Positions 11,659-13,832 of a stretch of DNA of 40,535 nucleotides are shown here, piece by piece. The translations under genes were made by a program, and so were the position numbers. The notes under the pieces are model-generated. The model searched no databases, had not been told where the DNA came from, and saw only the letters and a list, made by a program, of their open reading frames with translations. The stretch lies in assembly GCA_032185465.1 (NCBI GenBank), contig GCA_032185465.1_4549.1; one strand, written 5' to 3'. The first letter of the stretch is position 1. Each line of letters starts with the position of its first letter. The DNA comes from a phage.

Positions 11659-11681
11659 CATCCCTAAGGTGATAGTTTAGC
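11659..11681 (-). promoter_or_regulatory. degenerate phage promoter-like sequence (CTAAACTATCACCTTAGGGATGA)
   Basis: Upstream half matches the promoter consensus but -3/-2 are CT instead of TA; overlaps the amidase stop. Function uncertain. Confidence 0.3.
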
Positions 11682-12135
11682 CTCGGTCGGAAGTGACCAG
11701 TTCATTGGTAGACAGCCAGCGTTGCAAGTCGAAACTTGGACACGCCTTTGGTGCTACGTCATGATGTGCTTTGATTTCTGCCTGAGGATACAAGTCCTTC
11801 AGGTCAGCCAGCTTGTTGCGCAGGGAGTTCATCTGGGCCGGAGTGAAGTTAGCTTCAAACTTGCCCTTAGCGTCAATTCCACCTACAAGGCAGACGCCTA
11901 CAGACCGTGAGTTCCAGTCCTTAACGTGTGACCCTACGACATTGACCGGGCGTCCCTCTTCCACAGTGCCATCGCGCTTGATGATAAAGTGGTAGCCTAC
12001 GTCCAGCCAGCCTTGCTGCTTGTGCCACATACGGATGGTCTCTACCCCGATGTCCATCCCTGGCTTGGTAGCCGAACAGTGTACGAAGATAGCGTCGGTC
12101 CGGGACCGTGGATTGAACTGTACCTTACTTACCAT
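11677..12135 (-). CDS. N-acetylmuramoyl-L-alanine amidase (T7 lysozyme gp3.5-like)
   Basis: 152 aa; DAIFVHCSATKP, WLDVGYHFIIKRDGTVE, VGVCLVGGID, KGKFEANFTPAQM, APKACPSFDL, NELVTSDRG, colinear with T7 gp3.5. Confidence 0.95.
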   Translation of the reverse strand: MVSKVQFNPRSRTDAIFVHCSATKPGMDIGVETIRMWHKQQGWLDVGYHFIIKRDGTVEEGRPVNVVGSHVKDWNSRSVGVCLVGGIDAKGKFEANFTPAQMNSLRNKLADLKDLYPQAEIKAHHDVAPKACPSFDLQRWLSTNELVTSDRG

Positions 12136-12616
12136 TGTACACCACCAATTCTACGACAACCAGATTCAGGTGCTGGGTGAAGCGTTGTGCGTCCGTGGTG
12201 TGCATCTGGAGATGCTTATGGTTGAAGACGTGTGAGTTGCTAATCTTCACGTAAACTTCTTCAGGCTTTCCATGGACGATGAACGTCTGGCCTACACCAA
12301 TCTTGTCGATGGTCAGGACTTCACGCTTCAAAGTCACAGGCGGTACGCTCGAAGCTGGCAGGACTTGAGTGGTTTGGACACCAGTGAGTTTCTCTTCCGG
12401 CTTGATTTCCTCAAGTTTCCAATTAAGGACCCATGCTCCCCACATACCCTCAGGCTGAGTATTGCAGCCGTTAGACCCATGTTTGTATGCGCCTGGAGTC
12501 TGGCACTCAACTAGGGTCATTCTTGAATCTGGTACGGGGTCATTCTCACACTTGGTAACTATAGTCCCACTAGGCCAGCCATGCGCATCTACTAACAGTT
12601 TAAACTTCTTGCTCAT
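12125..12616 (-). CDS. hypothetical protein, 163 aa, inserted between endonuclease I and amidase
   Basis: ATG at 12616 overlaps the gp3 stop (TGATG) with AAGGAG 8 nt upstream; no T7 counterpart at this position and no recognised motif. Confidence 0.7.
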   Translation of the reverse strand: MSKKFKLLVDAHGWPSGTIVTKCENDPVPDSRMTLVECQTPGAYKHGSNGCNTQPEGMWGAWVLNWKLEEIKPEEKLTGVQTTQVLPASSVPPVTLKREVLTIDKIGVGQTFIVHGKPEEVYVKISNSHVFNHKHLQMHTTDAQRFTQHLNLVVVELVVYNGK

Positions 12617-13068
12617 CACTTAACTCCTTTCTTCTTGGGGATGAGTATACCTGAAGGCAGACGTACAGTCGCCTCTCGAAGCCACTCAACCGGGATGAAT
12701 TTATCGGCATACTTATAGCCGTTCTTTTCGCACCATGCGCCATACGTGGTTGGAGACCCTTTGTATAACTTGGAGCGTGAACTTGAGAACACGAACCGGA
12801 TGTCTAACTCTGGGTGCTGTTCTCGTACCAGAAGGTGCTTCTTACGGTCATCACTATCGAAGATACCTTTGGTCTCCACGATGACACCGTTGGGAAGGAT
12901 AAAATCTGGTGTGTACTTGTGGTCGGAAGCCGGAATCACATAGTTGATATAATGGCTTTCGTACTCCGCTTTGACGCCGTTCTGTTCCAGCCACTGCTGG
13001 TTCTTGGCTTCAAGTCCAGAGCGGTAGGCACCCACAGAGTGCCCCCGTTTTGCAGACCATTGGGCCAT
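12616..13068 (-). CDS. endonuclease I (Holliday junction resolvase), gp3-like
   Basis: 150 aa; YVIPASDHKYTPDFILPNGVIVETKGI..SDDRKKHLLVREQHPELDIRFVFSSSRSKLYKGSPTTYG closely matches T7 gp3. Confidence 0.95.
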   Translation of the reverse strand: MAQWSAKRGHSVGAYRSGLEAKNQQWLEQNGVKAEYESHYINYVIPASDHKYTPDFILPNGVIVETKGIFDSDDRKKHLLVREQHPELDIRFVFSSSRSKLYKGSPTTYGAWCEKNGYKYADKFIPVEWLREATVRLPSGILIPKKKGVK

Positions 13069-13769
13069 TAGAAGTCGTAATCGCCACCAGAGTTGGAGTC
13101 GTCACCACCTTCGGAACCATCGTCAGACCCAAAGTCATCACCACCGAAGTCACCAACGGTTGACGCTTTGTAGCCAGTACCAAGGTCTTCATCATCACCC
13201 CAGCCACCATCGCCACCAGCACCATCGCCTTTCCACTCCTTCAGTTCTACCAGAAGGCAGGACTCGAGCTGGAGCTTAACGCTTGCACCAGTCGCAGCGT
13301 TCCACTTGAACGGCAGGACTTTAAACTTGACCTTCAGCTTAGACCCAGCGCAGATATTCGGGACGTCACGGATGAGTTTAGCATCGGTGTCGTAGAACCG
13401 TAATACGATAGGCTCGGACTTGCCGTCTTTCAGGTAAGACGCAAAGCATTTAAACTTAAGGGTAACAGTACCGTCACCATTCTCAATCCATGGCATGTCG
13501 CCTTCTCGTGGTTCAATAGGCTTCTTGCCACGCTGAACCTGAGGTGGGTTCTTCTCGTGGTCTGCGAGTGCTTTTGCATACGCATCGTCGTGAATCTTCT
13601 GTAAGACATCAATCATCTTACGGACCTTATGGTTGCTCAGGTCGAATGTCAGGTTAACCTTATGCTCACCACGCTCGTTAAACTTGGTGTCTGCTTTGTT
13701 CAGCCATGCGTAAGGCTCAACGATACCAGCTACCGGAGTGGTGAAAGTCTTCAGTTGCTCTTTAGCCAT
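13068..13769 (-). CDS. single-stranded DNA-binding protein, gp2.5-like
   Basis: 233 aa; GSKLKVKFKVLPFKWNAATGASVKLQLESCLLVEL and acidic C-terminal tail ending DF, as in T7 gp2.5. Confidence 0.95.
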   Translation of the reverse strand: MAKEQLKTFTTPVAGIVEPYAWLNKADTKFNERGEHKVNLTFDLSNHKVRKMIDVLQKIHDDAYAKALADHEKNPPQVQRGKKPIEPREGDMPWIENGDGTVTLKFKCFASYLKDGKSEPIVLRFYDTDAKLIRDVPNICAGSKLKVKFKVLPFKWNAATGASVKLQLESCLLVELKEWKGDGAGGDGGWGDDEDLGTGYKASTVGDFGGDDFGSDDGSEGGDDSNSGGDYDF

Positions 13770-13809
13770 CGGTGTAAATCTCCTAATTTAAAAGTTACTA
13801 ACTGGACGT

Positions 13810-13832
13810 CTGTCCTACAGTGATAGTTTAGG
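13810..13832 (-). promoter_or_regulatory. variant phage promoter (phi2.5 position): CCTAAACTATCACTGTAGGACAG
   Basis: Consensus upstream half with -2 G instead of A; between gp2 stop and SSB start. Confidence 0.45.

Follow-up and report, generated by a model that had tools for sequence, protein, structure and literature searches.

Do two promoter-like elements with a perfect recognition segment and an altered TATA melting segment represent working promoters of reduced strength, or decayed copies of former ones? This question is raised by positions 11,659 to 13,832 of a 40,535-nucleotide stretch of phage DNA (contig GCA_032185465.1_4549.1; the window), where the initial annotation had marked one such element at each end and had offered both readings, weak class II-type promoters or decayed copies.

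The phage promoter set and its two exceptions

The window is a complete, permuted genome of a Kayfunavirus (K1F-like, T7-family Studiervirinae). Every gene, and every long ORF, lies on the minus strand, and the genes follow the order of the K1F map, circularly permuted. A 3.5-kb query spanning both sites had matches of 80-99% identity in 230 phage records, almost all from Kayfunavirus, with Escherichia phage vB_EcoP_LNA5 as the top match (99.3%). The window contains 11 copies of a phage-RNA-polymerase promoter, (C/A)CT(A/T)A(A/G)CTATCAC-TATA-GG, and TATA occupies -4 to -1 in 9 of the 11; the exceptions are the two elements in question, hereafter site A and site B. The nine TATA promoters, each identified by its match to the consensus, and the polymerase gene are as follows:

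20195..20217, minus strand, consensus (TATA) promoter upstream of gene 1
16875..16897, minus strand, consensus (TATA) promoter, phi1.1 position
15112..15134, minus strand, consensus (TATA) promoter, phi1.6 position
5266..5288, minus strand, consensus (TATA) promoter, phi6.5 position
2445..2467, minus strand, consensus (TATA) promoter, phi9 position
1458..1480, minus strand, consensus (TATA) promoter, phi10 position
37550..37572, minus strand, consensus (TATA) promoter, phi13 position
29452..29474, minus strand, consensus (TATA) promoter, phi17 position
23446..23468, minus strand, consensus (TATA) promoter, phiOR position
17444..20125, minus strand, gene 1, single-subunit RNA polymerase of 893 aa, 63% identical to T7 RNAP

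The gene 1 polymerase is the enzyme expected to use the promoters at sites A and B. A related enzyme, the Kayfunavirus-type RNAP of Ro45lw, uses ACTTAACTATCACTATAGGGA in vitro and starts at the G (PMC12272871). The recognition element of that promoter is the same as at the window sites, and its +1 G was mapped experimentally (PMC12272871). The Ro45lw assay covered the consensus TATA form only, whereas the window sites are TGTA and CTTA forms, and the result thus validates the consensus and the +1 assignment, though not the variants.

Searching the window with the 18-bp string CTWARCTATCACTATAGG at up to 3 mismatches returned 12 matches, all on the minus strand, compared to 0.08 expected from shuffled sequences. 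Nine matches were perfect, while site B had 1 mismatch and site A had 2. This excess on a single strand indicates that the sites are real and non-random. The two sites and the genes around them are:

11659..11681, minus strand, site A promoter, -17 to +6 with +1 at 11664, reading GCTAAACTATCAC-CTTA-GGGATG (consensus match, orthologues)
13810..13832, minus strand, site B promoter, -17 to +6 with +1 at 13815, reading CCTAAACTATCAC-TGTA-GGACAG (consensus match, orthologues)
13828..13986, minus strand, gene 2, host RNA polymerase inhibitor of 52 aa (named from relatives' annotation), with its stop codon inside site B
13068..13769, minus strand, gene 2.5, single-stranded DNA-binding protein, which starts 46 nt downstream of +1 at site B
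11677..12135, minus strand, gene 3.5, a lysozyme/amidase with 70% identity to the lysozyme that inhibits the RNAP in T7, with its end inside site A
9820..11520, minus strand, gene 4, primase/helicase, the first protein gene downstream of site A

The reverse complements of 11659-11681 and 13810-13832 are GCTAAACTATCACCTTAGGGATG and CCTAAACTATCACTGTAGGACAG, respectively. From -16 to -5, the recognition part, both sites are identical to the consensus. The initial annotation had therefore located both copies correctly and was right about the upstream match and the altered melting region, but its placement of the substitutions at -2/-3 was off by one: with T7 numbering (+1 as the first G), the changes are T-4C and A-3T at site A, and A-3G at site B. 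Both sites lie on the coding strand, carry GG at +1/+2, and overlap the upstream gene only at its stop codon. At site B, the TAA at -15 to -13 is the stop codon of gene 2, and the promoter sits between genes 2 and 2.5; at site A, the TAA at the same positions is the lysozyme stop codon, and the promoter abuts the lysozyme gene directly, with no gene 3.7 in between, ahead of gene 4. Scans of 11400-14100 for sigma-70 promoters and terminators returned nothing above chance.

The melting segment across K1F-type genomes

The promoters were compared in 36 K1F-type genomes or loci, comprising 10 whole genomes, EcoDS1, IMG/VR contigs and 8 further GenBank regions, a set in which a small number of the IMG/VR contigs may be duplicates of GenBank records. 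At site B, positions -4 to -1 read TGTA in 27 genomes and TTTA in 9. At site A, they read CTTA in 29, CGTA in 2 (the two closest relatives), CTAA in 1 and CATA in 1, and 3 genomes had no K1F-type promoter at this position, it having been lost or replaced. TATA was found at neither site in any of the 36 genomes. The base at -3 thus turns over (G/T at phi2.5, the site B position; T/G/A at phi3.8, the site A position, where C at -4 is fixed), with full TATA never restored. The recognition element was intact at site A in 33 of the 36 genomes and at site B in all 36, and the same positions deviate throughout. By comparison, in the 10 whole genomes (the window and 9 others), TATA was present in 60/60 late promoters (phi6.5, 9, 10, 13, 17 and OR) and in 20/20 phi1.1 and phi1.6 promoters.

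The site A recognition element is kept with or without an upstream gene 3.7, and with or without a downstream 88-nt tRNA-like insert. Sister lineages with another promoter specificity (ACCCTCAC; core TTAAACCCTCAC-TATA) also carry TGTA at phi2.5, and their phi3.8 is likewise off-consensus. In the Salmonella phages PRF-SP7 and KE05, the site A recognition element has been lost, with a shortened hairpin and a CCCTTTGTTCGC block retained downstream, and in one contig (L011), a foreign-type promoter occupies the site A position. The loss or replacement of site A in 3 of 36 genomes indicates that it is dispensable.

Within the K1F-type group, conservation of the promoter cores did not significantly exceed that of their leaders (Fisher p = 0.10 and 0.34), the genomes being too alike. 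The relatives are close, and the absence of TATA is underlain by few independent substitutions. Among the matches listed from an IMG/VR scan with TAAACTATCACNNNAGG, most were chance ones in unrelated contigs, and a site-specific scan recovered the same ~20 contigs.

Strength and function of the two promoters

Based on these data, sites A and B are likely working class II (middle) promoters of the phage's own RNA polymerase that initiate poorly. Both lie among the DNA-metabolism genes, between gene 1 and gene 6, occupy positions homologous to those in T7, and depart from the late consensus, as expected of class II promoters. Given the intact recognition element, the polymerase should bind. In the T7 promoter, positions -17 to -5 form the binding domain, and melting begins at -4, in the initiation domain (PMC5937735); by analogy, polymerase binding at the window sites would be normal, with the -4 to -1 changes lowering open-complex formation and initiation.

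An indication of the size of this effect comes from T7 promoter variants, for which RNA/DNA ratios are available from single barcodes on linear templates transcribed by T7 RNAP (Komura 2018, S2 File; PMC5937735). The wild-type promoter gave ratios of 141-188, and -2A, a natural class II change, gave 137-161, almost no in vitro cost (PMC5937735). At -3, ratios were 53-83 for C, 29 for T combined with a neutral -13T, and 15.6 and 2.5 for G, which occurred only in multi-mutants with extra upstream substitutions (PMC5937735). A -4C change with -13T, a near-neutral background, gave 11, and the exact double change CACCTTAGG (CTTA) gave 3.6, ~2% of wild type; all of the variants listed were above background, with -3 changes leaving roughly 10-50% (PMC5937735). 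By this comparison, promoter strength should be moderately low at site B and very low at site A. In the window RNAP, an A aligns with T7 V237 at the tip of the hairpin that separates the strands (the intercalating hairpin), and the T7 figures consequently transfer only roughly, since sensitivity at -4/-3 could differ.

Should -4 and -3 be near neutral for this polymerase, both sites would instead be fully active, ordinary promoters, neither weak nor differently regulated. This would fit with the perfect recognition elements, with a hairpin tip unlike that of T7, to which T7 mutant data may not transfer, and with the nearly costless natural -2 change in T7 (137-161 vs 141-188). However, neutral positions should vary elsewhere, and the invariance of TATA at all 80 phi1.1, phi1.6 and late promoters of the 10 genomes makes neutrality at -4/-3 improbable; moreover, the CTTA change reduces the T7 promoter to ~2% activity. 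We therefore regard full activity as unlikely.

Lower still is the probability that both sites are non-functional relics, the second of the two readings in the initial annotation. The very low residual activity of the site A double change in the T7 context, together with the absence of site A from 3 of 36 relatives, which makes it non-essential, would be compatible with decay. Decay should, however, strike the 13-bp recognition element and vary by lineage, whereas -16 to -5 is intact and the same positions deviate in 33/36 genomes at site A and 36/36 at site B, even across a switch in promoter specificity. Lineage-specific degeneration over the whole element, as in a decayed pseudo-promoter, was observed at neither site, and in T7 both positions are occupied by active, characterised promoters. 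Intact recognition elements and genus-wide deviation at the same positions thus make non-functional decay unlikely. Instead, since the off-consensus bases of the melting region persist genus-wide, the sites are probably weak by design.

The transcript predicted from site A begins with two further features:

11640..11664, minus strand, 5' hairpin of the site A transcript, +1 to +25, GGGAUGAGAC-CACGA-GUCUUGUCCC, followed by a CCCTTTGTTCGCA block (folding, relatives)
11535..11613, minus strand, tRNA-like gene, called by ARAGORN as tRNA-Thr (CGU), in which the anticodon arm is non-standard; the gene begins at +52 of the transcript from site A

The hairpin has a predicted folding energy of -15.6 kcal/mol (z = -2.9). 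Among the K1F-type group, 97.5% of cells in the aligned stem are paired, with one compensatory pair, and covariation within this group is weak, 31 of 500 shuffles being as good. An equivalent hairpin with another stem sequence is present in the sister lineages and T7. The tRNA-like gene directly precedes gene 4, and tRNA was the sole Rfam match in the region of the two sites. The phi6.5 leader includes a promoter-like string with 3 mismatches; its folding was no better than that of shuffled sequences. RNA pairings that would constrain -4/-3 at site A were not conserved across its differing upstream contexts.

It is most improbable that these elements are kept primarily as a signal for RNA processing or stability, as a terminator hairpin or as the boundary of a recombination module, with promoter activity incidental: the hairpin and CCCTTTGTTCGCA block persist where the recognition element is gone, the ASO2B record annotates the hairpin downstream of site A as a rho-independent terminator, and the site A flanks vary by lineage as expected at a mosaic junction, but such a role would account for the leader and not for an exact 13-bp recognition-element match on the coding strand, the pairings of -4/-3 differ between upstream contexts, and nothing in the terminator scan of the region exceeded chance.

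As weak class II promoters, the two sites would divide the middle genes between them. Site B (phi2.5) would drive gene 2.5, encoding the single-stranded DNA-binding protein, and the genes after it, and site A (phi3.8/phi4) would drive the hairpin-capped leader, the tRNA-like RNA and the primase/helicase gene, both modestly supplementing read-through transcription of middle genes from upstream. In T7, weaker promoters are more sensitive to lysozyme. Binding of T7 lysozyme to the RNA polymerase shifts transcription away from class II promoters and towards class III ones (PMC6938266). We infer that both sites initiate at reduced strength and are sensitive to lysozyme; as lysozyme accumulates, they would be the first to be silenced, and transcription would shift to the perfect late promoters. 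A literature search returned no Kayfunavirus transcriptomic paper.

It is conceivable, if somewhat short of probable, that selection has acted on the melting segment of exactly these two promoters, keeping it off-consensus as a built-in weakness that serves as a timing device. If true, this would imply that Studiervirinae tune the shut-off of middle genes by defects in the initiation region and not by mismatches in the recognition region. The comparative pattern offers a simple, testable case of strength tuning via the melting segment in a second polymerase system of the T7 family, with a possible use in graded-strength K1F-type promoter sets for synthetic biology.

Comparison with T7 and with annotated relatives

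Much of this picture is already known: the phage group is a familiar one, both sites are class II promoters of its usual kind, with orthologues already annotated, and they mirror T7 biology. The modest added value lies in the census, in which the melting segment departs consistently from consensus at these two promoters and is invariant at the late ones. Site A is the orthologue of T7 phi3.8 (phi3.8/phi4) and site B that of phi2.5. The correct labels are therefore the phi2.5 and phi3.8/phi4 promoters, not pseudo-promoters, with little significance beyond annotation. The class II assignment in the initial annotation is accordingly supported by position, by homology of the leader to that of T7 phi3.8, and by the promoter annotation of relatives.

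The T7 reference record has phi2.5 between genes 2 and 2.5 and phi3.8 at 19 nt past the lysozyme gene 3.5, the same positions as sites B and A, respectively. Both T7 promoters are also off the late consensus in -4 to +1, phi2.5 reading TATT with an A start and phi3.8 reading TAAA. The deviating bases themselves differ. In the window, they are -3G at site B and -4C/-3T at site A, whereas in T7, they are -1T plus the +1 A start at phi2.5, and -2A plus changes at -13 to -11 at phi3.8. The recognition elements of the window sites and the T7 class II promoters differ as well (AACTATCAC against CGACTCAC).

Downstream of the promoter, the site A leader has a 5' hairpin and CCCTTTGTTCGCA in common with that of T7 phi3.8, and GGGATGAGACCACGAGTCTTGTCCCTTTGTTCGCA in the former is homologous to GGGAGACCACAGCGGTTTCCCTTTGTTCGCA in the latter. 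The hairpin starts exactly at +1 in both leaders, and the alignment with T7 extends upstream into the C-terminal coding sequence of lysozyme. The two loci diverge in what follows, with gene 3.8 after T7 phi3.8 and the tRNA-like gene after site A.

Among relatives, the EcoDS1 record names the orthologue of site B 'phi2.5' and that of site A, before gene 4, 'phi', while the CR44b record lists both as 'predicted promoter' (7470-7492 and 9838-9860). The cores in EcoDS1 and CR44b are the same as in the window, TGTA and CTTA. The ASO2B record annotates the site B orthologue at 9123-9145, where the core is TTTA in place of TGTA, and a note in this record refers its promoters to the K1F consensus, quoting Scholl and Merril 2005. 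The closest relatives of the window, LNA5 and LM33_P1, differ from it at site A, with CGTA in place of CTTA.

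Promoters at gene ends and promoter variation among relatives

The TAA at -15 to -13 of the promoter doubles as the upstream gene's stop codon in 4 of the 11 promoters in the window, including site A (the phi3.8-position promoter at 11659-11681, minus strand) and site B (the phi2.5-position promoter at 13810-13832, minus strand):

2463-2465, minus strand, promoter TAA that is the gene 8 stop
11677-11679, minus strand, promoter TAA that is the lysozyme stop (site A)
13828-13830, minus strand, promoter TAA that is the gene 2 stop (site B)
29470-29472, minus strand, promoter TAA that is the gene 16 stop

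At these four sites, gene ends carry promoters without a spacer, in a closely packed arrangement.

The promoter just before RNAP gene 1 has TATA in the window (20195-20217) and in most relatives, while MT1B1P3 (L156, +1 at 6414) has TTTA and SFPH2 (L155, reverse complement, +1 at 39398) has TAAA. SFPH2-like genomes additionally carry a TGTA promoter ahead of the DNA polymerase gene, for which the window has no counterpart. Sister lineages represented by IMG/VR contigs L015, L017 and L023 use another promoter core, TTAAACCCTCAC-TATA, yet have TGTA at phi2.5. In a further IMG/VR contig, L011 (6040-6100), phi3.8 is that of the other lineage, AACACTCAC-TAAA-GGGATG, and promoters at other positions are K1F-type. 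The L011 phi3.8 departs from the contig's own consensus at -10/-9 and looks like a promoter that is recombinant and possibly dead.

Elements downstream of promoter starts

Directly ahead of gene 4 is a tRNA-like gene, which begins 52 nt past the start of site A:

11535-11613, minus strand, tRNA-like gene (ARAGORN, tRNA-Thr (CGU); Rfam tRNA, 36.7 bits)

Genes for tRNAs are unusual in T7-like phages. The tRNA-like gene here encodes a CCA end and has good acceptor, D and T arms, but its anticodon arm is over-long and irregular. Of the 35 phage records with this element, 32 match it at 99% identity or more. The records label it variously as tRNA-Thr, tRNA-OTHER or Pseudo(GTG), or leave it unannotated; K1F, CR44b and the majority of other relatives lack it.

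In the phi6.5 leader, a promoter-like string begins 14 nt after the phi6.5-position start and is kept in the phi6.5 leaders of all relatives compared:

5241-5258, minus strand, promoter-like string CTAAGATATGACTATAAG, 3 mismatches

Folding of this leader was no better than that of shuffled sequence.

The site A hairpin in other phages

The site A recognition element is absent from Salmonella phages PRF-SP7 (L178 2960-3075) and KE05 (L179 2440-2590). Both still have GGGGACCTTAGGGTCCCTTTGTTCGC at this locus, in which the CTTAGGG start is joined to the hairpin end, an arrangement suggestive of deletion or replacement of both the interior of the hairpin and the promoter's upstream half. In the Escherichia phage ASO2B record (L181 2948-2984), the hairpin at the site A +1, together with its U-rich tail, is labelled a rho-independent terminator, and the promoter immediately upstream is unannotated. 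In T7 phi3.8 and phi10, the same hairpin is the 5' stem-loop of the transcript.
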